This document shows, piece by piece, positions 38,346 through 51,766 of a stretch of DNA of 64,000 nt (its first letter is position 1; each line of letters begins with the position of its first letter). The DNA comes from Bacteroidales bacterium (GTDB lineage Bacteria > Bacteroidota > Bacteroidia > Bacteroidales > VadinHA17). A program made the position numbers and the translations under genes. The stretch is taken from assembly GCA_011620595.1 (NCBI GenBank), contig WOYX01000062.1:40300-104299 (forward strand), in the 5' to 3' direction. The notes beneath the pieces were generated by a model. It saw nothing but the letters and a program-made list of their open reading frames with translations, was not told the origin of the DNA and searched no databases.

Positions 38346-39896
38346 TTACCTACTTACTTTTCGTACCGAGTCTATGACAGTGCCGTCCACCCATTTGATG
38401 GCTGCCACCACCCTGTCGTCAAAAGCAGCTTTCTCCGGCTTTCCGCAGATCCTTTCAGCCATCTCCTTCAGCTCTTCCACCGTCACCAGTGGCAGCCCCT
38501 TGCCCCTGACGGAGTCAAGCAGATCCTGCCTGCGCGGATTGATGGCGATACCCCGCTCGGTTATGATTACGTCAATGAGTTCACCTGGGCCGCACAGTGT
38601 TGTCACCTGGTCAACTATCACCGGAATCCTGTCACGGAAAAGAGGTACGGGCAGAATGACATTCCGGGCGTGAAGGCAGTTTTGCCACCCTCCTATGCCA
38701 TGCAGCATCAATCCGTCAGAGTGAGTGACAACATTGCCGTTGAACTCAGTGTCAATCTCCGTGGCTCCAAGGATCATGATGTCCATCATGGTTGTCAGGT
38801 TGCCCTTGGAATGGTAGTTATAGGCGTTGAAAACCGAATAGGGTATATGATTCGGATTCTCCTCCACTGATCTGACAGCGTCAAGGTCAAAAGCCTGGGC
38901 GTCAAGGATATATCCCATCTGTCCCTCTTCCAGCATCTTTACCATATATTTTGTGCTGCCACCGAAGCCGAAGCTTAGCTTCCAGCCTTTCTTTTTCAGC
39001 ATCTCATGGACAAAGACAGCAATGGCCAGGCTGGTGCCTCCGGCTCCCGCCTGCATTGTGGCACCGTCATACAGCAATCCTGATTTCTCGAGGAACATGG
39101 CTGTAAGTTCAGCGATGAGCAGCCTGTCGGGACTCCTGGTGATCTGTGTTGTTCCCGATACTATTTTTTCTGGTATTCCCAGTTTGTCAACCACAACCAC
39201 GCAGTCAACATAATTTCCCTCTATCTCCATGGGGAAGCAGGGCAGGTCAACAAGGTTGTCGGTTACCACTATCACCCTGTCGGCATACAGGTAGTCTGCC
39301 TTGGCATAGCCCAGCACACCCGTTGCGGAGGGTCCTCCCGTGCCTTTTGCGTTACCGAAGGAATCAGCTGCCGGGGCTGTGATGACAGCTATGTCTATCT
39401 TCACCTCGCCGTCCTGTATGGCCTGCACCCTTCCACCGTGAGAACGGAGCACAGCCGTGCCCTTCATCCTTCCTTCAGAGACGAACCTGCCCAGGGGTCC
39501 GTTCATGCTCCCTTCGATGCGGTTTATAGTGCCATCCTCGAGATATTTTATCACCGGTTCATTGCAGGGAAATGATGCGGAGGGCAGCCAGACGAGGTCT
39601 TTTACGCCCATCTCCGCAGCGATGTCAAATATCCGGTTATTGACCAGGTCGCCGTCGCGCAGGTGATGGTGAGTTGATACGGTCATGCCGTCACGCAGTC
39701 CGCAGCGTTCCAGGGCCTCACGGAGTGAGGCGACAACCTTGTTGTTGTCGCCCGGGTAATCAATGCATGTGGGCAGGGGAGGGCCATATTTCCTGCCTGA
39801 GGGACGGTGCTTGCCGACGCCCTTGAAAGGGACAGCCTCGTGCCCGTTTATTTCATCCGGCACCAGGCGGCCGGCAGCATTTTCTATCATTTTCAT
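38346..39896 (-). CDS. citF: Citrate lyase alpha subunit-like acyl-ACP/CoA transferase
   Basis: [66 protein letters not shown]; ATG at 39896. Confidence 0.88.
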
Positions 39897-39915
39897 GACC
39901 GGTAATCTCTTTAGG

Positions 39916-41139
39916 TTATTCCTCTGGCTCCTGTTCCTCCCAGTTTTCGGGCAGCAATCCCAGCCGTACGGCAAGAGCAATGGTTTTCTCAGCACGTGCC
40001 ACCACGGGAGGGTCAATCATCTTCGAGCCCAGGGCTACCACGCCCAGCCCTCTTCTCCGGGCTTCACGGAAGGCAAGGACAATCTTCTTTGCCTTTTCAG
40101 TCTCTTCAGGCTCCGGCGAGAACCCTTTTCTGATGACAGCTATCTGGCGGGGGTGTATACAACCCATCCCTTCAAATCCCATTGCCTTGGATCTCAGCAC
40201 GTTGTCAAGCAGTCCCTCCATGTCTGCCACATCCGAGAAGACTGAGTCGATAGGTTGTATCCCTGCTGCCTTGGCTGCCACCACAAGACGGTTGCGTGCA
40301 TAGAGTGACTCCAGTCCCTCCTTTGTACGTTGCACTCCAAGGTCAGCCGTATAATCTTCGAGGCCTATTGCCATGGCCACCACGGAGGAGGAGGAGGTGG
40401 CGATCTCAAATGCCTTTTCCACGCCGGCAGCGCTCTCTATGATAGGCATCAGGAACACTGGCCGGCCGATTTTTTCTCTCTCCCTGATCTCCCCGATCCG
40501 CTCATCAATCTTCATTACCGACTCCCTGCTTTCGCATTTGGGTATAAGCACAAGGTGGACATTGTGAGGAATCACATAATCCAGATCCTCCAGTCCGCGA
40601 TCTCCCTGGTTGATACGTACCATTCTCTCGGCACCATAGAAATCCACGGCCCGCAGTGCATTCCTGACCAGTATCCGTGCTTCGTCCTTTTTCTCCGGGG
40701 CTACCGAATCCTCCAGATCAAGTATCACACCATCGGGTGAGTGAAGTCCGGCATTCAGGAACATGCCCGGGTTGTTTCCCGGGAGGTAGAGCCGTGAGAA
40801 GCGGAATCTGCCTCTCTCTGAGGCGTAACGGTTCTCTGCAATCATTTCGGGAAGGAATGGGGCTGGCATCCGGCCCAATGCCCTGACTGCTGCCTCCACC
40901 CTGGCCGCAATAACAAAGGGAAGAGCCCCGGAGTCATCGACTTTCATCCGGGCGTTTTCAATCCCGAAGTATCGGAGAAGATCACGGCACTGTTTCTCAA
41001 TGGCATTGCCGTACATTGTTTTTACCTTTGACCTGATCTCGAGCTCGACACCGCCAGAGGCAGTACTTTCAAGAGTCACCTCAATGTCAGATCTCACTTT
41101 TGGCCCGGTGTTACCGGTCACTGCCTGTTTCATCTCCAT
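39916..41139 (-). CDS. citE: CitD (acyl carrier)-CitE (citryl-CoA lyase-like) fusion protein
   Basis: N-terminal CitD-like domain (RSD..S.V..YG..I..DDSGAL..I.ARVEAAV) fused to CitE (SRLYLPGNNP, LDLEDSVAP, VRIN, IIESA, GLEDYTADLG, CIHPRQ, MIDPP). Confidence 0.88.
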   Translation of the reverse strand: MEMKQAVTGNTGPKVRSDIEVTLESTASGGVELEIRSKVKTMYGNAIEKQCRDLLRYFGIENARMKVDDSGALPFVIAARVEAAVRALGRMPAPFLPEMIAENRYASERGRFRFSRLYLPGNNPGMFLNAGLHSPDGVILDLEDSVAPEKKDEARILVRNALRAVDFYGAERMVRINQGDRGLEDLDYVIPHNVHLVLIPKCESRESVMKIDERIGEIREREKIGRPVFLMPIIESAAGVEKAFEIATSSSSVVAMAIGLEDYTADLGVQRTKEGLESLYARNRLVVAAKAAGIQPIDSVFSDVADMEGLLDNVLRSKAMGFEGMGCIHPRQIAVIRKGFSPEPEETEKAKKIVLAFREARRRGLGVVALGSKMIDPPVVARAEKTIALAVRLGLLPENWEEQEPEE

Positions 41140-41173
41140 TTTTCAGGGGAATTTTTAACAAACTTAATAAAAA

Positions 41174-42529
41174 TTATCCGAGGTAGCTCAGCATTATCCC
41201 TGCTGCGATGGCAGATCCGATTACGCCGGCCACATTTGGACCCATGGCATGCATCAGAAGATGGTTAGTCTTGTCGGCCTTGAGCCCTTCCACCTCAGAT
41301 ACGCGCGCGCTGTCAGGCACGGCGGAGACACCTGAGTTGCCAATAAGTGGATTGATCTTGTCTCCTTCGGGCAGGAAGATGTTCATTGTCTTGGCGAACA
41401 GTACTCCCGCGGTGGTTGCTATAGCAAAGGCTGCTGCACCCAGGGCAAAAATGAGGATCGACTCCTTTGTCAGGAATACGTCAGCCTGTGTTGAAGCACC
41501 AACGGTTAGCCCTATCATTATATTCACGATATCTATCAGGGATGTGCGGGCTGTCTCTGCCAGTCTCTTTGTTACGCCCGACTCCTTGAGTATGTTTCCG
41601 AAGAAGAGCATACCCAGTAGTGGCAGTGCACTTGGTGATATAAAGCAGGTAAGCAGCAGTCCGAATATAGGAAAGAGTATCTTTTCGGTCTTGGTGACGG
41701 CGCGGGGCGGCTTCATGCGTATCAACCTCTCCTTCCTGTTGGTGAGGAGTCTCATGATCGGAGGCTGAATGACAGGCACGAGTGCCATGTAGGAGTATGC
41801 CGCTATGGCAATGGGGCCGATGAGGTTTTTCACCGGGGTGCCGTCAGCCAGCAGATTCATTCCGTTGGCCAGGCGGGAAGAGATGAATATAGCCGTAGGG
41901 CCATCCGCTCCTCCGATTATGCCTATTGCTCCGGCTTCAGGGGGAGCAAATCCCAGCAGAAGAGCTCCGATGAATGTAATGAATATCCCAACCTGTGCGG
42001 CAGCACCCAGGAGAAGCAGTCTGGGATTGGATATCAGTGATGAAAAGTCGGTCATGGCACCTATGCCCAGAAAGATCAGGGGAGGATATACTCCCTTGAG
42101 CACCCCGAAATAGAGGTAGTTCAGTACGCTTCCCTGCTGGTAAATGCCCACCTGGAGGTTCATGCCGCCATCGGAAAAGATGGGTATGTTCCCTATCAGT
42201 ATTCCTGTTCCAATGGGTACAAGCAGCAATGGTTCATATTCATATCTTATGGCCAGGTAGATAAAAATCAGGCCTACCAGAATCATAATCAGGTGCCCTG
42301 ACGTCACATTACGGAACCCGGTGAAAGCCCAGAATTGCCTGAGACCAGCAAGAAATCCCTCTTCTGTCTGGTTGTCCGGCTGATACTGTGGAAGGGCAGC
42401 ACTGGCTTCAATTCCTGTTTCTGTCTGCGCTTTCTGCCTGTCATGTTCAGGTTTGACGAATGCCAGCCACGCCAGTGAGGTTATCACCAGCAGAGCAAGT
42501 ATAGTCCACGTCTTTCTCTTTGCCATCAC
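41174..42529 (-). CDS. mmdB: Na+-transporting decarboxylase beta subunit
   Basis: EPLLLVPIG, FLGIGAMTDF, IGIIGGADGPT, AAYSYMALVPVIQPP, SAVP, HAMGPNVAGVIGSA. Confidence 0.92.
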   Translation of the reverse strand: MMAKRKTWTILALLVITSLAWLAFVKPEHDRQKAQTETGIEASAALPQYQPDNQTEEGFLAGLRQFWAFTGFRNVTSGHLIMILVGLIFIYLAIRYEYEPLLLVPIGTGILIGNIPIFSDGGMNLQVGIYQQGSVLNYLYFGVLKGVYPPLIFLGIGAMTDFSSLISNPRLLLLGAAAQVGIFITFIGALLLGFAPPEAGAIGIIGGADGPTAIFISSRLANGMNLLADGTPVKNLIGPIAIAAYSYMALVPVIQPPIMRLLTNRKERLIRMKPPRAVTKTEKILFPIFGLLLTCFISPSALPLLGMLFFGNILKESGVTKRLAETARTSLIDIVNIMIGLTVGASTQADVFLTKESILIFALGAAAFAIATTAGVLFAKTMNIFLPEGDKINPLIGNSGVSAVPDSARVSEVEGLKADKTNHLLMHAMGPNVAGVIGSAIAAGIMLSYLG

Positions 42530-42960
42530 TAACCAATTACAATTAGAACCTCATCCTGAAGGACAGACTGCCCGGGGGCAATGTTTACAGCGGTGACCTT
42601 GCCTGCACTCTCTGCCTTAATGGCATTTTCCATTTTCATCGTTTCGAGGGTGCACACCGTCTGGCCGGCAATGACGTCGTCGCCCGGCCTGACAAGGACC
42701 TGGATGATAACACCCGGCAGCGGAGCTCTGATATCTGCAGCCTTGCCTGAAGAGGTTTTTTCGGGGGCTGGTTTGGTCTCCCTGGCCGGTCTTTCCTGTA
42801 CTGTTGCGCCGGTGACCACAGTCTTAATCTTGGGAATCTCGTGCTGCATCTCCACTTCGTAGAGAGTTCCGTTTACCTCTATCCTTGCAATGTTGTCGTC
42901 GATATCGAGCACCTCAACCTCATACAGGTTACCGTTGATCTTGAACTTATAGTTTTTCAT
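42529..42960 (-). CDS. mmdC: Biotin carboxyl carrier subunit of methylmalonyl-CoA decarboxylase
   Basis: MKNYKFKINGNLYEV N-terminus; APLPG; ETMKME biotinylation site. Confidence 0.9.
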   Translation of the reverse strand: MKNYKFKINGNLYEVEVLDIDDNIARIEVNGTLYEVEMQHEIPKIKTVVTGATVQERPARETKPAPEKTSSGKAADIRAPLPGVIIQVLVRPGDDVIAGQTVCTLETMKMENAIKAESAGKVTAVNIAPGQSVLQDEVLIVIG

Positions 42961-42991
42961 TCGATTGTTTAATTGTTATTTCATTGGTCGA

Positions 42992-43053
42992 ATGGAACTT
43001 GCATGAAAAAACAATCATGTCCTTTTGTGAGCTGCAGCTCATGCAAGTTTCAT
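42992..43053. repeat. ~62-bp inverted-repeat (hairpin) element, copy 1
   Basis: ATGGAACTTGCATGA...TCATGCAAGTTTCAT arms; homologous copy at 53339-53402. Confidence 0.75.
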
Positions 43054-43076
43054 CTTGCTCTCCGGTTATGGTGATC

Positions 43077-43448
43077 TTAAAGGTTATTCATATTGTATAA
43101 TTTCGAGCTCCACGGTGAGTAGTTCCTGGAGACACGCTTGATTGTTATGACACCGCTTTCCACGTCATGAAGCTCATTGAAGTACTGGTAGAGTGCCATG
43201 GCGATTGCCGCATTGACTTCTCCTGACTGAATTGTCCTTGCTGTCTGTGCTTCGGCCGGGTCAATTCCCTTTTTCCGGGCAAAGCTCTTCAGCTTGAAGT
43301 TCAGAATATATGTCAGTATATACCTGAAAAAGAAATAGACAACCAGCAGTGAAAGAAATACTATACTTATGCCGACCACAACGATGGTCCAGGCAAGCGG
43401 ATCAAGGCCTGCTGCAGCCCCGGCAAGTAAGAGTGTGTGCATTGTCAT
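43077..43448 (-). CDS. OadG/MmdD-type small membrane subunit
   Basis: One TM helix (IVVVGISIVFLSLL), AAIAMAL..HDVES..ITI..SPWSSK typical of Bacteroidales. Confidence 0.85.
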   Translation of the reverse strand: MTMHTLLLAGAAAGLDPLAWTIVVVGISIVFLSLLVVYFFFRYILTYILNFKLKSFARKKGIDPAEAQTARTIQSGEVNAAIAMALYQYFNELHDVESGVITIKRVSRNYSPWSSKLYNMNNL

Positions 43449-43454
43449 ATTTTG

Positions 43455-45014
43455 TCAGAGTGGAATGTTGCCATGTTTCTTCATCGGTCCCGGATCCTTT
43501 TTTGTCGTAAGGGTCCTGAGGGCCCTTATGATTCTGAACCTGGTATTCCGGGGTTCGATGACATCATCAATATAACCGTATTTTGCTGCTTCATAGGGAT
43601 TTGCGAACTTCATGCGGTACTCTTCCTCCTTCTTCAGGACGAATTCCTGACGTTCAACCGGGTCTTCTATCTCGCTGATAGCCTTTCCGTCGAGTATTTC
43701 AATGGCTCCGTGGGGTCCCATTACCGCGATCTCTGCCGTCGGCCACGCATAGTTAAGGTCACCTCTGAGCTGCTTTGAAGACATGACGCAATGAGCTCCT
43801 CCGTATGATTTTCTGAGGGTTATTGTCACCTTGGGCACGTTGGCTTCGCCGTATGCAAACATCAGCTTGGCGCCGTGGATTATTATGCCGCCGTACTCCT
43901 GCTTTGATCCTGGCATAAAGCCCGGGACATCGACAAAAGTAATAATGGGGATATTGAATGCGTCACAGAAACGGATAAAGCGTGCTGCCTTCCGCGAGGC
44001 TTCGATGTCAAGCACTCCTGCAAGGTGAGCGGGCTGGTTGGCAACGATTCCCACGGGCATGCCGTCAAACTTGGCAAAACCGACAACGATGTTCTTAGCA
44101 TAGGCTTCATGAACCTCCACAAATTCATGATAGTCGACCACGCGAATTATGACATCCTTGACATCATAAGGCTGGTTGGGGCTTTCGGGAATGATATCAT
44201 TAAGGTCATCCTCGAGTCTGTCAATAGGGTCATCGCACTCGGTCTGCGGCGGTTCCTCAAGATTATTCTGAGGCATAAAGCTAAGCAGTTTCCTGATGAG
44301 GTCGAGTCCCTCCTGTTCCTCATCCACGGTGAAGTGAGCAACACCTGATTTTGTGGCGTGGACATCAGCCCCGCCGAGATCATCAATGGATATATCTTCG
44401 CCTGTGACTGTCTTTGCCACTTTCGGACCGGTGACGAACATATAGCTGCTCTTGCGACTCATCACAATAAAGTCGGTCAGCGCCGGAGAATAAACTGCGC
44501 CGCCGGCACAGGGGCCAAAGATGGCGGATATCTGCGGTATCACACCGGAGGCCAGTATATTCCTCTCAAAGATTTCGGCATAACCTGCCAGGCTTCTCAC
44601 GCCCTCCTGGATGCGCGCACCGCCGGAGTCGTTGATACCTATCACCGGTGCTCCCACCCGCATGGCCTGGTCCATTATCTTGCATATCTTCTGTGCGAAG
44701 GTCTCTGAGAGTGATCCTCCGAAGACGGTGAAATCCTGTGCAAAGACATAGACTACCCTACCGTCTATTGTACCGTGGCCGGTGATCACACCGTCAGATA
44801 GGTATTTCTTGTCGGCCAGGCCAAAATCCTCCGTTCGGTGGGTGACAAACATGTCATACTCTTCGAAGCTGCCTTCATCGAGCAGCATTGTTATGCGTTC
44901 CCTGGCTGTAAGCTTGCCCTTGGAGTGCTGGTTCTGAATGCGTTTTTCGCCCCCGCCCTCACGAGCTTTCTCCCTGAAATCAAGGAGCTGCTTAATTCTA
45001 TCCTGACTATTCAT
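43455..45014 (-). CDS. mmdA: Acyl-CoA carboxyltransferase (methylmalonyl-CoA decarboxylase alpha)
   Basis: [59 protein letters not shown]. Confidence 0.92.
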
Positions 45015-45027
45015 AAAACCTTAGTGT

Positions 45028-45447
45028 TTATTGTTTCCTCTTTCCCTTGTCTTCACACAATTCGGTCAGAACGCCAAAGGTCGACTTCGGGTGGAGGAAG
45101 GCAATACTCAGTCCTTCCGCACCGCACCTCGGTTCAGGGTCAATAAGTCTGATACCTGCTTCTTCCACCTCCCGGAGGCGCTCTTCAATGCTTTCAACGG
45201 CATAGGCTAAGTGGTGTATCCCTTCCCCCCTCTTCTCAATAAATTTACCTATCGGTCCTTCAGGGTCCGTGGACTCCAGCAGCTCGATCTTTGTCTGGCC
45301 TATCATGAAAAAGGCGGTCCTGACCTTCTGGTCAGCCACCTCTTCAATGTTGTAGCACTTCAGTCCGAGCACCTTCTCATAAAACGGAATCGCCTCGGCT
45401 ATTGAATTTACGGCAATACCAATATGCTCAATATGTGTAGGTTTCAT
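45028..45447 (-). CDS. mce: Methylmalonyl-CoA epimerase
   Basis: IEHIGIAV, QKVRTAF, KIELLE, GEGIHHLA, FLHPKSTFGVLTELCE. Confidence 0.95.
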   Translation of the reverse strand: MKPTHIEHIGIAVNSIAEAIPFYEKVLGLKCYNIEEVADQKVRTAFFMIGQTKIELLESTDPEGPIGKFIEKRGEGIHHLAYAVESIEERLREVEEAGIRLIDPEPRCGAEGLSIAFLHPKSTFGVLTELCEDKGKRKQ

Positions 45448-45599: not shown

Positions 45600-47162
45600 T
45601 CAGAACGGAAATTCGTCCGGAGTAGCCTCCAGCTCCTCGGTCTCTGGCTTAAGTGCTGCCTCATGAACCGGGTTTCCGTCGACGAAAATGGCCTTGTACG
45701 GCTTTGTCGGGCAGGCATATTCGCATGCGCCGCATCCTATGCATATCTCGTCCCTGACTTCCGGGATGAGCAGTTTTCCTTCATACGGTACCATATGACA
45801 GGCTTTTGTGGGGCAGTGTTCAGAGCATGCACCGCAGGCTGTCTTCTCAGTATGTACAATACAGTTCTCCTTGATAAAGACGGCCTTGCCTAGCTGGGTC
45901 AGCTTCTTGGCTTCAATCATCAGGGGCATGATGGCTCCCGTGGGGCAGACGTCGGTACAGCGGTTGCAGTCATAATTGCAGAACCCCCTGTGAAAATCCA
46001 TCCGCGGCTGCATGATACTGGCGAAGCCGTATTCGCTGACAGAAGGCTGCAGAACATGGGTAGGGCATTCAATGATACAGAGGGAGCAGGCCGTGCATCT
46101 TGATATGTATGATTCGATGCTTACCGAGCCTGGCGGTGAGACCGGATAGAGCCTGTCTTCCCTGACAGTTGATTCCTTCGTTGGCGCAGGCGGATCACCC
46201 TGGGCGCGTAACAGCTGGGAAGCTCCGGTGAGAAGCACAATTGAACCGGTGATGAAATTGCGCCTGGAGGGGTCTGTCTCCTCTTTTTTTGTGCTGCGCC
46301 TGAGGCGTACGGGACCATACGACATGGCATTTTCACTGCAGCTGTCAAGGCAGTTGAAGCAGTTGACACACCTGCTTACATCAATATGTTTGTTGAGAAA
46401 GTCAATGCATGACGATTTGCACGCCATGGCACATCTCCCGCACCGGGTGCACTTTTCCTCTTCAAAACGAATCCTGAAGATTGATAACTTGCTGAGAAGT
46501 CCGAGGAAAGTACCCACGGGGCATACGGTGTTGCAGTAAAGTCTTCCGTAGCGGAAGGACAGAAAGCCTACAAGAAATAGAAACGCTACGGGAATGAAAT
46601 AAGCTGCCAGCTCATAGGGAACAATATCTATCCTGTAAAGAGCGTATATGTCAAACTTGCCGAGCAGTGTGGCCAGGAGGTTATTGATAAGCAATACTAC
46701 AGGCTGTCCAAAATAGGTCATAAACCTGCCAAAGATGCTGTAGGGATCAAGAATGGTAAGCACATATACGCCGCCGAGGACCAGTATTCCGGCAGTAAGC
46801 ACAAGTATGAAGTAACGGAGCCATGTGTAGGGCTTCTTGTAGCCGTATCTGCGGAAGCGTCTCTTAATCAATCCTCCCATGCGGCTGAAAACATCCTGAA
46901 GTATTCCCAGCGGGCAGAGGAAGGAGCAATATGTCCGCCCTGTGATGAGAGTAAGTATAATGATTACTATGAAGCCTGTGGCGGCTGCCACGCCGGCAAT
47001 GACAAACTTAAGCAGCGAGGGTGCAAACTGGAGGTACAGTATCGGACCAAAGGCCTTCTCTCCCAGTGTCCCCCTGTAATCAATAAAAAGATAAACAAAT
47101 ATCAGCAGCACGAATACTGCAAAAACGGTTCGTATATGTCTGAGTGCCGATGACCGCATCAA
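45600..47162 (-). CDS. Membrane polyferredoxin (NapH/MauN-like N-part plus NapF/G-like C-part)
   Basis: Several TM helices, two CxxxCP motifs, about six 4Fe-4S motifs, internal SRRNF twin-arginine followed by a hydrophobic stretch. Confidence 0.9.
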   Translation of the reverse strand: MMRSSALRHIRTVFAVFVLLIFVYLFIDYRGTLGEKAFGPILYLQFAPSLLKFVIAGVAAATGFIVIIILTLITGRTYCSFLCPLGILQDVFSRMGGLIKRRFRRYGYKKPYTWLRYFILVLTAGILVLGGVYVLTILDPYSIFGRFMTYFGQPVVLLINNLLATLLGKFDIYALYRIDIVPYELAAYFIPVAFLFLVGFLSFRYGRLYCNTVCPVGTFLGLLSKLSIFRIRFEEEKCTRCGRCAMACKSSCIDFLNKHIDVSRCVNCFNCLDSCSENAMSYGPVRLRRSTKKEETDPSRRNFITGSIVLLTGASQLLRAQGDPPAPTKESTVREDRLYPVSPPGSVSIESYISRCTACSLCIIECPTHVLQPSVSEYGFASIMQPRMDFHRGFCNYDCNRCTDVCPTGAIMPLMIEAKKLTQLGKAVFIKENCIVHTEKTACGACSEHCPTKACHMVPYEGKLLIPEVRDEICIGCGACEYACPTKPYKAIFVDGNPVHEAALKPETEELEATPDEFPF

Positions 47163-47165
47163 CTG

Positions 47166-48092
47166 CTACATTTTCATCCTGTGGATGTTCATTGAGGAGA
47201 GGTCCATCTTGCCTGCTCCCATGGCTGCGGCCAAGGCTATATGCTCAATTGATGACGGCTCTTTGCCCATCATTTTGGCGCCTGCAGCATCAATTGCCAC
47301 CCAGTCGGTGGAGATCATCAGGGATTTCATATTTGAGAGGTCTCCCACCGACACACCACGGGGACCGTTGCGCATCATCACATTATAGGCATCCATGATG
47401 TTCAGTGCGGGCTTTTTGTCAAAGAGGGTATAGTCGGCTATGCACTGGTTGAGATTGTTCCTGTGCCAGTAACCACGGTCCCAGACAACACCCATCATAT
47501 TCTTAAGGGCACCGGTCATCCTTGCCGAACTGTGATGCTTGAGAATGGGCACATTGATAAAAACATCGCTGCTGAGCACCAGTTCATGAACCTTGGTTTT
47601 TGTAAGCTTCTTCCCGTTGGGAATGGTCACCTCCTGGTAGTAACTCTCAGAACCGCTGGGCACCATTTTTGCGCCGGCATCCTTTACAGTCTGCTCTATG
47701 CCGGAGTTCTTGTAGCATTTGATCCAGTTATCGCAGGTATTGTCGAAGACATATACCTCTTTGGCCCCTGCCCTGAAGCAATGTTCTATGACCCTCTTCA
47801 CGAGGGCAGGATTTGTATTTGCACCCTTATCAGGTACAACATCCCATCCTATATTAGGCTTGACAAGAACCTTCTGTCCCTTGCCAACAAATGTACCCAT
47901 GCCTCCCATTGCCTGTATACCGAGATCAAACATTGCAGCAGGTTCTCCGCCCATGACAGCCACAAGATCATAGTTGGCCCCCGATGGCATCGGTTTGCCT
48001 GCAAACAGCTTCTCATACCTGCCAAAACTCATCATGGCTCCTGCTGCCATCCCGGCACCGAGAGAACTGCGCAGAAATTTGCGTCTTTTCAT
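47166..48092 (-). CDS. DUF362 domain protein with Tat signal peptide
   Basis: MKRRKFL Tat motif; VLVKPN, TNP..V, INVPILKHH...TGALKNMMG, D.VAID motifs of DUF362. Confidence 0.88.
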   Translation of the reverse strand: MKRRKFLRSSLGAGMAAGAMMSFGRYEKLFAGKPMPSGANYDLVAVMGGEPAAMFDLGIQAMGGMGTFVGKGQKVLVKPNIGWDVVPDKGANTNPALVKRVIEHCFRAGAKEVYVFDNTCDNWIKCYKNSGIEQTVKDAGAKMVPSGSESYYQEVTIPNGKKLTKTKVHELVLSSDVFINVPILKHHSSARMTGALKNMMGVVWDRGYWHRNNLNQCIADYTLFDKKPALNIMDAYNVMMRNGPRGVSVGDLSNMKSLMISTDWVAIDAAGAKMMGKEPSSIEHIALAAAMGAGKMDLSSMNIHRMKM

Positions 48093-48242
48093 ACCCTTCT
48101 GTATCTTATATTACCCCAAAAATGAGAATGCGCAAAATAAACATTTTTTTTAATATATAGCTACCGTATTCTTATATTAGCAGCCTGAGGGCAAGGCAGT
48201 GCGCCACGGTGCCTGAGGATAACCGAATGTTAAAAAAACCTA

Positions 48243-49577
48243 ATGATGAGGATAGCAATATATGACTGTTTTTCGGGAATAAGCGGTGACATGAACCTCG
48301 GGGCTATGCTCGACCTGGGCGTTGACCGCGATATCCTGATTGAAGGCCTCAACAAACTGAAACTGCAGGGATGGCATCTTGAGATCACCGCTGACCAAAG
48401 GCACGGCATCACTGGCACGAAGGTTACGGTGGTGACAGAAGACGACAATGATCATATCCATGACCATTCCGGAGGAGACAGTCATGAGCCTCATCACGGT
48501 GAGCCTCAGAATACCGGAAGTCACCATCATGAGAATAATCACGCTCACCATCAAGAGCATCATCATCACGGTGAGCAGGCGCAGGAGGAGGCCGGAGGAG
48601 GCCGGCAACCGCACAGAAACCTTGCCGACATAGAGAAGATCATCAACGGCAGTTCTCTCGACAGTAAGATTAAGGATACGGCCCTGGGTATCTTCAGACA
48701 TATAGCTGAAGCTGAGGCCGCTGTTCACGGCAAGCCGGTCAGTGAGATTCATTTTCACGAGGTGGGTGCAATAGATTCAATCATTGACATCGTGGGTGCG
48801 GCAATTTGTTTTGAGGCACTTGCAGTTGACAGGGTATATGCTTCCGTCGTAGAGCTCGGCGGAGGGTTGGTCAGGTGTGCACACGGGGTGATGCCTGTCC
48901 CGGCCCCTGCCACGGCCAGAATCATCAGCGGCTTCCCGGTACACACCGGAGGAGTTGATTTTGAGGCTACAACACCTACCGGTGCTGCAATTATTGCTGC
49001 GATGGCAGAGCCACTTCCCGCAGATATCTCATATGTTATCAGGAAAAGCGGTTATGGTATCGGGCAGAAGAACAACCCGTCGCTTCCGAATATCCTGAGG
49101 ATAATCCTGGCCGAGAGTGCTGAAGAACGGCCCAGGGGTCACAATGCCGTGCTGGCGGAATGCAACATTGACGATATGAACCCTGAGATATCGGAACATA
49201 TTTCAGGAAGATTGTTTGCCGCCGGCGCCGGTGATGTCTGGTTCACCCCGGTCATCATGAAAAAGGGAAGACCGGCATATACCCTGAGTGTACTCTGCGG
49301 TGAGGAGCACCTGGATGCGGTGAGGGAGGTTATCTTCACCGAATCGACCACCATTGGTCTCAGGGTGGTGCCCGTCATGAAGGAGACGCTTCACCGGGAG
49401 TTTGAAGAGATGGAGACGCCCTACGGGCCGGTTGTCATCAAAAAATCATACTACAACAACAGGCTTGTTTCGGTCAAGCCTGAAGCTGACCGGTGTGCTG
49501 AGATAGCCAGGGAGACAGGGCTGCCGATGAAGCAGATTATACAGGAGATAACAGCAGCCGTGCAGGAACAGGAATGA
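48243..49577 (+). CDS. larC: Nickel-pincer cofactor nickel insertase LarC
   Basis: DCFSGISGDMNLGA, His-rich insert, HFHEVGAIDSIIDIVG, HG..PVPAPAT, TPTGAA, ECNIDDMNPE, MKKGRP, T.G.R, KPE. Confidence 0.93.
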   Translation: MMRIAIYDCFSGISGDMNLGAMLDLGVDRDILIEGLNKLKLQGWHLEITADQRHGITGTKVTVVTEDDNDHIHDHSGGDSHEPHHGEPQNTGSHHHENNHAHHQEHHHHGEQAQEEAGGGRQPHRNLADIEKIINGSSLDSKIKDTALGIFRHIAEAEAAVHGKPVSEIHFHEVGAIDSIIDIVGAAICFEALAVDRVYASVVELGGGLVRCAHGVMPVPAPATARIISGFPVHTGGVDFEATTPTGAAIIAAMAEPLPADISYVIRKSGYGIGQKNNPSLPNILRIILAESAEERPRGHNAVLAECNIDDMNPEISEHISGRLFAAGAGDVWFTPVIMKKGRPAYTLSVLCGEEHLDAVREVIFTESTTIGLRVVPVMKETLHREFEEMETPYGPVVIKKSYYNNRLVSVKPEADRCAEIARETGLPMKQIIQEITAAVQEQE

Positions 49578-50407
49578 GCAGCAGTGAAAAACTTGACAGA
49601 CTCAGGGCGCTCATAGCTGAGTGCGGCGCTGCCGCCATAGCCCTATCCGGCGGTACTGACAGTACTTTCCTGGCCAGTGTGGCAGCAGCAGTGCCCGGCT
49701 TCAGGGTTATGGCACTGACGGTCAGGACACCCTATATGTTTGACGGTGAACTGAGAGATGCAGCCATATTCTGCAAAAGCATTTCAATAGAGCAGAAGGA
49801 GATCAGTGTATCAATACCGGTATCGCTGGGCGACAATCCCCCGGAACGGTGCTATCTATGCAAGAGTGAACTGATGGGAGCCATCGTGGCGGCAGCTGCG
49901 GAACAGGGATTTGACACTGTTTTTGACGGCACCAATGCAGATGACCTGCATGAACACCGGCCGGGTATGAGAGCCCTTAAGGAACTTGGCATAAGGAGTC
50001 CGCTGGCAGAGACAGGACTTACAAAGAGTGAGATCAGGCAGCTGGCACGAGAAGCAGGGCTCGAGGTGAGCGACAAGCCATCCAACTCCTGCCTCCTTAC
50101 CCGATTCCCTCACGGCACCACGATCACAGTCGGTGATCTAAGGAGGGCACACGAAGCGGAGATGAGTATCTCAGCACTGGGGTTTGCCGGCGCAAGGGTA
50201 AGGATCCACGGGGAGCTGGCAAGGATAGAAATCAGGAGGGAAGAGCTGGCGCGTCTAGCGGATGAAGAGACCAGGAAGAAGATAACAGCTGCAATCAGGC
50301 AATCGGGTTACCGGTACGTAACCATTGATCTGGAGGGTTACCGCAGCGGTAGCATGGACATAAAAGAAGCCAAACATGAATGCCCTGGAACTGGAAAAGA
50401 TACTTAA
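49574..50407 (+). CDS. larE: NPN sulfur transferase LarE
   Basis: PP-loop SGGTDS, RCYLCK, DGTNADD...RPG, SCLLTRFP, RVR.HG..ARIE, GYRSGSM. Confidence 0.93.
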   Translation: MSSSEKLDRLRALIAECGAAAIALSGGTDSTFLASVAAAVPGFRVMALTVRTPYMFDGELRDAAIFCKSISIEQKEISVSIPVSLGDNPPERCYLCKSELMGAIVAAAAEQGFDTVFDGTNADDLHEHRPGMRALKELGIRSPLAETGLTKSEIRQLAREAGLEVSDKPSNSCLLTRFPHGTTITVGDLRRAHEAEMSISALGFAGARVRIHGELARIEIRREELARLADEETRKKITAAIRQSGYRYVTIDLEGYRSGSMDIKEAKHECPGTGKDT

Positions 50408-51131
50408 AGGGATAAGCAGCGGATCGGTATCCGTTGAGGAGGCCATGGAACAGCTGCGTGATTTTCCCTACAGCGATCTCGGTTTCGCCCGTATAGACCA
50501 TCACCGTGAGCTCCGTACAGGTTATCCGGAGATAGTCTACTGCGCCGGCAAGACGGCAGAACAGGTGGAAGCCATCTTCAGGGTCATGGATGATCATGGC
50601 AACAACATCATTGGCACCAGGGCTCCGGGGGAGATGTATCAGCAGATACGCCACTCTTTTCCCGAAGCCGTCTATTACGAGACGGCAAGGATAATCAGCA
50701 TAAACAAAAAGGCGCTTGTCCGGCCGCCGACGAAGATTGCCGTGATCACTGCCGGCACCTCTGACATTCCGGTGGCGGAGGAGGCTGCTGTAACGGCCGA
50801 GCTGCTCGGCAATGATGTGGTGAGGATATATGATGTCGGGGTTGCAGGCATACACCGGCTCGTTGACAAACTGCCTGAGATACGTTCATGCAGGGTGTCA
50901 ATAGTGATTGCCGGGATGGAAGGCGCCCTGGCCAGTGTTGTAGGCGGACTGGTGAACATGCCTGTCATTGCGGTGCCCACGAGTGTGGGCTACGGAGCCT
51001 CTTTCGAAGGCCTGTCGGCTCTGCTGGCCATGCTGACCAGCTGCGCAGCCGGAGTGACGGTCGTCAACATTGACAACGGCTTCGGGGCCGGCTTCTCAGC
51101 CAGCCAGATAAACAGGATGCACGGAGTATGA
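50376..51131 (+). CDS. larB: NPN carboxylase/hydrolase LarB (PurE-like)
   Basis: IDHHRELRTGYPE, AGTSDIPVAEEA, DVGVAGIHRL, AGMEGALAS, PTSVGYG, VVNIDNGFGAG. Confidence 0.95.
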   Translation: MNALELEKILKGISSGSVSVEEAMEQLRDFPYSDLGFARIDHHRELRTGYPEIVYCAGKTAEQVEAIFRVMDDHGNNIIGTRAPGEMYQQIRHSFPEAVYYETARIISINKKALVRPPTKIAVITAGTSDIPVAEEAAVTAELLGNDVVRIYDVGVAGIHRLVDKLPEIRSCRVSIVIAGMEGALASVVGGLVNMPVIAVPTSVGYGASFEGLSALLAMLTSCAAGVTVVNIDNGFGAGFSASQINRMHGV

Positions 51132-51766
51132 GAGGCAGGGTACTTCTCTCAACTGCCTATTTTCCTCCGGCCGAATATTTCAGCCTGATAGCCTGCTCTG
51201 AAGATGTGATCATAGAAAAACATGAAAATTACCTGAAGCAGACATACCGCAACAGGTGCATGATCCTGGGGCCCAACGGCCCTCTTCAGCTGACTGTGCC
51301 GGTTCTCCGGGGCTCCTTCCACAAGACGCCCCTGAGAGAGCTGCGGATCGACAACAGCCGTCGGTGGAGGGAGCTTCACCTGAGAGGCATTGCCTCGGCC
51401 TATGCTGCTGCCCCGTTTTATGAATACTATTATGACATCATCGAGAGCGTCATCTCGGGAAAATATGAGTTCCTCCTCGATCTCAATGAGAGGGCCCTGA
51501 GGAAGATGTGTGATGCTGCAGGAATTGAAGTCCGGATATCATTCACCGATGAATTCATCAGAGAGGGAACCGTGGAGGAGGATTACCGTTACAGCATCAC
51601 GCCAAAAAGAGCTGTCTCCGTTCCAGGTTATAAAGCTCTCCCCTACACCCAGGTATTCAGCGAGAGATTCGGATTTACTGAAAGGATGAGCATCATTGAC
51701 ATTCTGCTCAATAACGGACCAGGGACCCGGGCATTGCTGCAGGGATGCCTGGAAAACCGTCAATAG
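51128..51766 (+). CDS. WbqC-like family protein
   Basis: STAYFPP, KQTYRNRC.I, LTVPV, W...H, AY...PFYEYY, YTQVF..FGF...MSIID.L.N.GP. Confidence 0.85.
   Translation: MRGRVLLSTAYFPPAEYFSLIACSEDVIIEKHENYLKQTYRNRCMILGPNGPLQLTVPVLRGSFHKTPLRELRIDNSRRWRELHLRGIASAYAAAPFYEYYYDIIESVISGKYEFLLDLNERALRKMCDAAGIEVRISFTDEFIREGTVEEDYRYSITPKRAVSVPGYKALPYTQVFSERFGFTERMSIIDILLNNGPGTRALLQGCLENRQ

Follow-up and report, generated by a model that had tools for sequence, protein, structure and literature searches.

We analyzed a 64,000-nucleotide stretch of DNA (the window) from a Bacteroidales bacterium of the VadinHA17 lineage (assembly GCA_011620595.1, contig WOYX01000062.1, positions 40,300 to 104,299 of the forward strand), in which larC, larE and larB, predicted to encode synthesis of the nickel-pincer nucleotide (NPN), lie divergently from genes for a DUF362 protein with a twin-arginine translocation (Tat) signal and a membrane polyferredoxin. 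On balance, we find it probable that the DUF362 protein works in the periplasm as a dehydrogenase that bears NPN and is wired to quinone in the manner of NapGH; larCEB would supply the cofactor here, and salvage would do so elsewhere. The DUF362 family is large and has no assigned function (at E ≤ 0.001 a search matched 5548 representatives at 50% identity), and if it carries NPN this would mean net redox chemistry outside the cytoplasm, joined to the respiratory chain. About 15% of genomes have larBCE but no larA (PMC11796402), which raises the question of what uses NPN in them; few nickel enzymes are known, 12 by the count in PMC13524815.

The DUF362 protein scored 174 bits against Pfam PF04015 (cut-off 24), a family that shares the Pfam clan CL0471 with DUF2088 (PMC11770544). 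An atlas search returned DUF362 clusters alone, and neither Lar_N (PF09861) nor the NCBIfam LarA models matched the protein at E ≤ 0.001. Because sequence searches against solved structures, both single and profile, gave chance matches only, the link to LarA needed a fold search. When the structure model (mean predicted local distance difference test score, pLDDT, 93.6) was compared with solved structures in VIA-align, five LarA-family chains came first (Z 17.9, 17.8, 17.1, 16.0 and 16.0), followed by an unrelated fold at 5.7, and only LarA-family chains exceeded Z 8. The first three, 9EIA, 7S91 and 5HUQ, aligned over 206-208 residues with an rmsd (root-mean-square deviation) between 2.8 and 3.0 Å (9EIA: 2.8 Å over 207 residues). 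The alignment covered only residues 33-270 of LarA, its NPN-binding domain, and left about 30 residues over: the C-terminal domain with which LarA recognizes substrate side chains (PMC11851776) has no counterpart. Foldseek matched the model to the Lar_N fold at E 2e-6.

An hhalign comparison (5HUQ numbering) paired H187 of DUF362 with LarA H174 and K197 with K184, which we take to be the number of the LarA tether lysine, and placed H210 two residues off H200. In LarA, H174 is the catalytic base (PMC12393405) and H200 is a nickel ligand (PMC11851776), and a lysine thioamide tether to the cofactor has been described (PMC13524815; PMC12393405). Among the 88 DUF362 orthologs, H187 is kept in 87 and K197 and H210 in all 88; in a wider set of 121 homologs the three residues occur in 116, 116 and 114, respectively. 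In the region equivalent to H108, where the alignment is of low confidence, position 118 is histidine in 38 and asparagine in 45 of the 88 orthologs and is asparagine here; an equivalent of K298, a residue of the LarA C-domain, was not found. The lack of a clear match to H108 or K298 would argue against ordinary racemization. C120 is conserved in 84 of the 88 orthologs, and the conserved cysteines C105, C120 and C217 could matter. Set beside the LarA superfamily (DUF2088; Lar_N PF09861; PDB 5HUQ, 9EIA, 7S91, 9Q3J, 4NAR), the protein resembles it in the N-domain fold (Z 16-18), the clan, the H174 and K184 equivalents, a candidate H200 equivalent and the genomic link to larBCE, and differs in having no C-domain, no clear H108 or K298 equivalent and no Lar_N match, in its Tat signal and fixed Fe-S membrane partner, and in an identity of 8-16% in the structural alignment. 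Outright membership in LarA is excluded by the absent C-domain and the absent Lar_N match, for all the likeness to the LarA cofactor domain.

The N-terminus carries an RRKFL twin-arginine motif with a hydrophobic stretch, RRxF recurs in 87 of the 88 orthologs, and tatC is present in this genome. By these sequence criteria the protein fits a Tat substrate, and its export is predicted.

The polyferredoxin has hydrophobic segments, Cys motifs and 30 cysteines in all, and is laid out as a NapH-like membrane half, an internal SRRNFI before the last transmembrane segment, and a NapG-like, Cys-rich C-terminus. Residues 183-282 match NapH and 292-494 match NapG/NapF, all below the NCBIfam cut-off. Among 72 aligned homologs R301 is invariant, position 300 is arginine in 43 and lysine in 29, and F303 is found in 53. 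Judged by its sequence, the protein is a NapH-NapG fusion of the dual Sec/Tat polyferredoxin (PFD) type, an assignment made by matching the description of that family in PMC5449189. The likeness to the PFD/NapGH quinol dehydrogenase lies in the NapH-like membrane part and the NapG-like periplasmic part behind an internal twin-arginine motif; the available text of PMC5449189 does not name a catalytic partner for PFD ("DUF" occurs 0 times), and here the partner gene is DUF362, not a nitrate reductase. The polyferredoxin is predicted to act as an Fe-S wire that links periplasm and quinone pool. It adjoins DUF362 in 87 of 88 fetched DUF362 loci and in 78 of 80 further loci from GTDB, two sets that may share genomes. 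Modeling of the DUF362-polyferredoxin complex, which the first-pass annotation had suggested, gave a score of 0.57 against 0.00 for the best control, with at least 95% of contacts agreeing between runs and a partner pLDDT of at least 93. Of 157 solved and 215 mismatched pairs, 116 and 2, respectively, come up to this mark, but only 18 of those solved pairs, along with both mismatches, do so with a score no higher than 0.60; support for the modeled complex is weak.

We surveyed 251 Bacteroidales genomes of at least 90% completeness. A DUF362 ortholog was present in 89, of which 29 also had larBC; the 40 genomes with LarC are also those with LarB, six of the LarC hits being partial. In 17 of the 29 genomes holding both, from 11 families, DUF362 and larC are arranged divergently, a pairing that recurs beyond chance. 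Other arrangements also bring the genes together: a gammaproteobacterial record from Competibacteraceae (L266) reads DUF362>PFD>larC>larE>larB in one direction, an operon independent of the Bacteroidales arrangement, and locus L107 has a split order, larC<DUF362>PFD>larB.

The operon itself is complete. An open reading frame (ORF) check of the window bore out the layout reported in the first-pass annotation: five intact ORFs, a 150-bp divergent gap, and 3 bp between polyferredoxin and DUF362 on their common strand. Close homologs carry Bacteroidales labels. LarC1 scored 209 bits (cut-off 90), LarC2 146 (50), LarE 270 (150) and LarB 301 (175), and the CxxC...C of LarE (Cys93/Cys96/Cys173) is presumably a pattern of the [4Fe-4S] type. 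We therefore assign larB/larE/larC, from these profile matches, as an NPN biosynthesis operon. A His-rich insert in larC (window 48440-48620; 17 histidines in residues 66-125) is a likely nickel store.

The same annotation had noted that larA is absent from the window, and no Lar_N match lies there; its further premise, that the genome has larBCE without larA, failed. This genome is 96% complete, and its only Lar_N match, on contig C19, scored 621 bits against a cut-off of 500 (NF052594, putative hexonate epimerase) and keeps all seven LarA signature residues (D72/R75/H108/H174/K184/H200/K298). The gene (L001:775-2058) runs with genes for a mannonate-oxidoreductase-like short-chain dehydrogenase/reductase and for HAD-like, pdxB-like and gnd-like proteins, and has orthologs in 14 genomes without larBC as well. 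There is also a Tat-signal aldo-keto reductase (AKR) resembling NphT, in two identical copies (9YEB at E 1e-52; H144 and K200 kept). With a LarA homolog and NphT-like AKRs elsewhere in the genome, larCEB is therefore not an orphan operon, and that possibility was ruled out. NphT (PDB 9YEB; PMC13524815) is the precedent for a non-racemase NPN enzyme, found by larBCE adjacency: it needs the nickel-pincer mononucleotide (NPMN), did not work with NAD(P)(H), and transfers hydride between molecules with a His/Lys tether. It differs from DUF362 in its TIM-barrel fold, in its redox-neutral disproportionation, and in that the available text describes no Fe-S or membrane partner. The two AKR copies (C49:1213-2166, L277; C9, L278:3954-4907) have the same four neighbors and are either a real duplication or an assembly artefact; this exported NphT homolog is a candidate periplasmic NPN enzyme itself. 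Two further Tat-signal AKRs (L280:3903-5081 on C5; L279:3770-4834 on C6) have His and Lys at NphT-like motif positions, and the former carries C-terminal Cys motifs.

Clustering of the neighbors of DUF362 in genomes without larBC brought up a membrane protein of about 170 aa, here called S-like, whose gene adjoins DUF362. Across genomes, the gene opposite DUF362 over the divergent gap is larC or this S-like gene. Loci L042 and L098 have the order outer-membrane gene, wbqC, S, DUF362, polyferredoxin, lepB, and loci L097, L109 and L112 have larB-larE-larC in the exact slot of S with the same flanking genes. A second S subtype precedes DUF362, with a small type I phosphoribosyltransferase between them in 6 of 7 loci. 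Within about 5 kb of DUF362, S is found in 25 and larC in 16 of the 88 fetched loci, both in 0; the 80 GTDB loci have S in 16, larC in 27 and both in none. Genome-wide, the S-like gene occurs in 60 of the 251 genomes, namely 1 of the 40 with larBC versus 59 of the 211 without, and among DUF362 carriers in 1 of 29 with larBC versus 35 of 60 without. The S model was trained on DUF362-adjacent genes of 18 genomes; outside these it found 42 positives, none with larBC.

The pattern extends beyond Bacteroidales. We examined 25 of the 80 GTDB loci, from Ignavibacteria, Desulfobacterota, Opitutales, Proteobacteria, Cyclobacteriaceae and one unspecified Bacteroidota; a Chloroflexota-labeled record with Bacteroidales gene order was set aside, and the 25 are metagenome-assembled genomes whose completeness is not shown. 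Sixteen of the 25 have larB; a search of 15 of these turned up LarC in each, and in the sixteenth LarC is encoded at the locus itself. Of the 9 genomes without larB, the first model detects S in 7, while in an eighth a divergent S-like gene and a phosphoribosyltransferase come directly after the polyferredoxin; G298 has neither route and G297 has both. In total, 24 of 25 have one supply route or the other.

A structure model of one S subtype resembled the S components found in ECF (energy-coupling factor) transporters, which account for 13 of its 15 highest-ranked matches (for RibU, Z 11.2, rmsd 3.8, 147 aligned). PF12822 matched one subtype below cut-off and the other not at all, and an atlas search gave a lead of 0.89 for an ECF S component. 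An hhalign test of homology between the two subtypes was not significant (probability 0.23), and only spaced Pro/His positions are common to them. In the model, the likeness to ECF S components (RibU, FolT, PanT, BtuM) would consist in a six-helix S-component-like fold, a length of about 170 aa and an either-or relation with a biosynthetic operon; the S-like gene differs from the ECF vitamin-salvage systems in that its substrate is read from gene context only. The S-like protein would probably import a pincer-type micronutrient in place of supply by larCEB.

Other neighborhoods of the S-like gene point in a similar direction. Eighteen of 39 additional S loci have, within about 5 kb, an AKR gene or a DUF362 gene of a different type. 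In the larBC-less genomes G099 and G216 (loci L142, L164) the S-like gene adjoins NphT-like AKRs with the H144/K200 of NphT, the L142 protein matching 9YEB at E 9e-59, and the S-like gene is present in 9 of the 14 larBC-less genomes that encode a Lar_N protein. A parallel module, found in 9 of the 18 loci, all without a Tat-DUF362 ortholog (L143, L146, L148, L150, L151, L154, L161, L162 and L171, in larBC-less Bacteroidales), combines a Tat Fe-S AKR with a polyferredoxin, often with DUF1893 and a TonB receptor; its AKRs keep the His and have Glu in place of Lys. DUF1893 occurs in 23 of the 251 genomes, none with larBC. A 2011 paper noted the neighborhood of DUF1893 (TM1506), AKR, 5TM and TonB receptor and proposed binding of NAD or ADP-ribose (PMC3239186); our literature searches found no link of the DUF1893/S-like neighborhood to NPN, larBCE or DUF362. 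It is possible, if somewhat short of probable, that NPN is a shared micronutrient which many anaerobes are unable to make. They would scavenge it, whole or as the ribose-free base, by means of a TonB receptor, an ECF S component and either DUF1893 or a phosphoribosyltransferase, and load it into a large, overlooked class of exported proteins (DUF362, Fe-S AKRs) in which the pincer performs net quinone-linked oxidation instead of racemization. If the either-or pattern reflects salvage, NPN would behave like a vitamin exchanged between microbes; salvage would account as well for the LarA and NphT genes of larBC-less genomes, and searches by larBCE adjacency would then miss many clients. Directly upstream of the S-like gene at L135-L137 and L141 lie genes for DUF362 proteins of 660 aa that carry a C-terminal domain for type IX secretion.

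In the mechanism we propose, LarB, LarE and LarC would make NPN in the cytoplasm, K197 would tether it, H210 would bind its nickel, and the loaded DUF362 protein would be exported by Tat. H187 would act as the single base, with hydride passing from a carbinol substrate (a sugar or hydroxy acid) to the pincer. Lacking the C-domain and a clear second histidine, the protein could not return the hydride to the opposite face, so the cofactor would be re-oxidized by the periplasmic NapG-like clusters of the polyferredoxin, which would pass the electrons to the quinone pool; the oxidizing direction is a choice that rests on an assumed NAD-like potential of the cofactor. In relatives without larCEB, the cofactor would probably be imported by the ECF S-component-like protein. 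In this genome, the LarA-family hexonate epimerase of the cytoplasm would draw on larCEB as well, and so, probably, would the NphT-like AKRs with Tat signals. The first-pass annotation had likewise proposed DUF362 as an exported NPN client with an Fe-S chain; that core is favored by the modeled LarA N-domain fold, the His/Lys motif, synteny, the L266 operon and the transporter-like replacement of larCEB, and what falls away is the orphan operon from which it started.

A number of observations weigh against the assignment of DUF362 as an NPN enzyme. Of the 89 carriers, 60 have neither larB nor larC, including the single-contig genomes G274 and G280, so that obligate co-occurrence is ruled out; the DUF362 proteins of these genomes retain the motif. 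The first-pass annotation had proposed phylogenetic profiling against larBCE as a check, and with these 60 genomes its outcome is divided. Lar_N tracks larBC far more closely (35/40, odds ratio 98) than DUF362 does (29/40, 6.6), and only 2 of the 29 genomes with DUF362 and larBC lack a Lar_N match; Fisher p-values on these co-occurrences are overstated, as related genomes do not count independently. The tree of DUF362 implies at least 9 changes in lar and 17 in S, yet it offers only 3 supported independent pairs, and a sign test was not significant (median p 0.5). Without the training genomes, S is found in 18 of 43 larBC-less DUF362 genomes; 25 of the 89 carriers have neither larBC nor the S-like gene and yet keep K197 and H210, and a divergent S-like gene was not found in these 25 with a 32-row model or in their loci. 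Both routes occur together in G258 and G297, T. maritima holds both larBC and DUF1893, and 21 of the 39 further S loci have no DUF362 or AKR nearby. At the level of structure, the S-fold Z scores stay under 13, the level required of helical bundles, and no Foldseek match reached E ≤ 0.001. The DUF362-LarA profile match is weak (probability 40.8, E 2.8e-4), H210 is offset from H200, H108 has no clear match, and no residue pattern separates the DUF362 orthologs of genomes with and without larBC. Finally, the discharge of a hydride cofactor into one-electron clusters finds no explanation in the results.

An unlikely account, which still deserves real weight, is that the clients of larCEB are the hexonate epimerase of the LarA family and the AKRs resembling NphT. 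DUF362-PFD would then be a periplasmic oxidoreductase whose LarA-like pocket takes a different cofactor, either a metal ion alone or a pyridine nucleotide without modification, and the S-like cluster would import nickel or a niacin-type vitamin. The TonB receptor that goes with the S clusters shares 37% identity with NikR-linked ones, so nickel import stays a rival to NPN salvage. An importer of nickel or niacin should, however, accompany larBC, and the S-like gene does the opposite (1/40 against 59/211), occupying the very slot of larCEB; S-like proteins also lack the conserved N-terminal Met-His, which we take to be the motif of NikM/CbiM type. The independent L266 operon counts against this account as well, and the NphT-like AKRs that the S-like gene flanks have in NphT a relative that did not work with NAD(P)(H) (PMC13524815).

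We think it rather improbable that DUF362 binds NPN as a periplasmic carrier or redox-reset protein, which would store, re-oxidize or pass along the cofactor on behalf of further exported NPN enzymes, for example the NphT-like AKRs with Tat signals. DUF362 does correspond to the cofactor-binding half of LarA only, without the substrate-recognizing C-domain, this genome does encode Tat-signal AKRs with the NphT His/Lys motif, and AKR genes adjoin DUF362 in L241 and L251. H187, the equivalent of catalytic H174, is nevertheless kept in 87 of 88 orthologs, most DUF362 loci have no AKR within 5 kb, and the Tat-AKR-FeS and polyferredoxin module stands in 9 loci without a Tat-DUF362 ortholog, a sign that different catalytic heads may be exchanged on a common kind of wire. 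That the DUF362-lar adjacency is mere inherited gene order is very improbable: 12 of the 29 genomes with both hold DUF362 and larC apart and flanking housekeeping genes are conserved at the locus too among kin that are not independent, yet the order is co-directional in L266 and split in L107, DUF362 has a LarA-type fold and motif, and the either-or pattern recurs in at least 5 distant lineages.

Literature searches, with subscription journals outside their coverage, found no paper characterizing DUF362 (also COG2006/COG2768/IPR007160/PF04015) by title or abstract start and nothing relevant on NPN salvage or uptake. The available main text of the NphT paper (PMC13524815) never mentions DUF proteins, ferredoxins or signal peptides; its supplements were covered in part, so a co-occurrence table naming DUF362 is possible there. 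The DUF362 protein is likely a new nickel-pincer enzyme linked to respiration, with a cofactor that would be either made or salvaged. The NphT paper also refers to an NPAD ornithine cyclodeaminase.

Features of the DUF362-larCEB locus, in window coordinates
Feature	Position	Strand	Basis
Polyferredoxin ORF, intact, 520 aa	45600-47162	-	Fer4 Pfams; NapH, NapG/NapF matches below cut-off
Internal twin-arginine motif SRRNFI, polyferredoxin residues 299-304	46251..46268	-	precedes last hydrophobic segment
Tat-signal DUF362 ORF, intact, 308 aa	47166-48092	-	PF04015; LarA N-domain fold of model
DUF362 motif H187-x9-K197-x12-H210	47463..47534	-	hhalign to LarA; conservation among orthologs
DUF362 twin-arginine signal region, predicted, ~first 30 residues	48003..48092	-	RRKFL motif
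Divergent intergenic region, 150 bp	48093-48242	.	between DUF362 and larC
larC, nickel insertase, LarC1+LarC2 fused, His-rich insert	48243-49577	+	NCBIfam
larE, sulfur insertase, Cys93/Cys96/Cys173	49574-50407	+	NCBIfam
larB, nicotinic acid adenine dinucleotide carboxylase/hydrolase	50376-51131	+	NCBIfam
WbqC-like gene, 4-bp overlap with larB	51128-51766	+	PF08889

A promoter scan of the divergent region showed no excess (8 found versus 6.9 expected from shuffles). The WbqC-like gene, absent from the first-pass account like the internal SRRNFI motif of the polyferredoxin, is a fourth gene on the larCEB strand; it is retained without larCEB in loci L042, L098, L120 and L122 and is probably a positional neighbor, because it persists where larCEB has given way to another gene or disappeared. 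Positions 38346-45447 of the window, directly downstream of the polyferredoxin and on its strand, contain genes for a methylmalonyl-CoA epimerase and a Na+-translocating decarboxylase-like protein, followed by citrate-lyase-like genes, in an order kept in close relatives only. Two more DUF362 genes lie elsewhere in the genome, one for a 376-aa protein with a nested ferredoxin and no Tat motif seen (L002:1357-2487, C53) and a partial one of 204 aa (L004:1342-1956, C6).

In loci L123-L129, from genomes without a Tat-DUF362 ortholog, another kind of larECB cluster comes with nikR, an unassigned membrane protein and a TonB receptor. Loci L284-L286 (G148, G065, G202) hold a divergent larE/larB/larC set with weak LarC scores, one of them a 248-aa LarC1 only, which is probably a separate acquisition. 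In G027, a LarA homolog with a twin-arginine-like N-terminus (L131:1831-3213) lies beside a sulfatase-like gene and has Ala at the K298-equivalent position.

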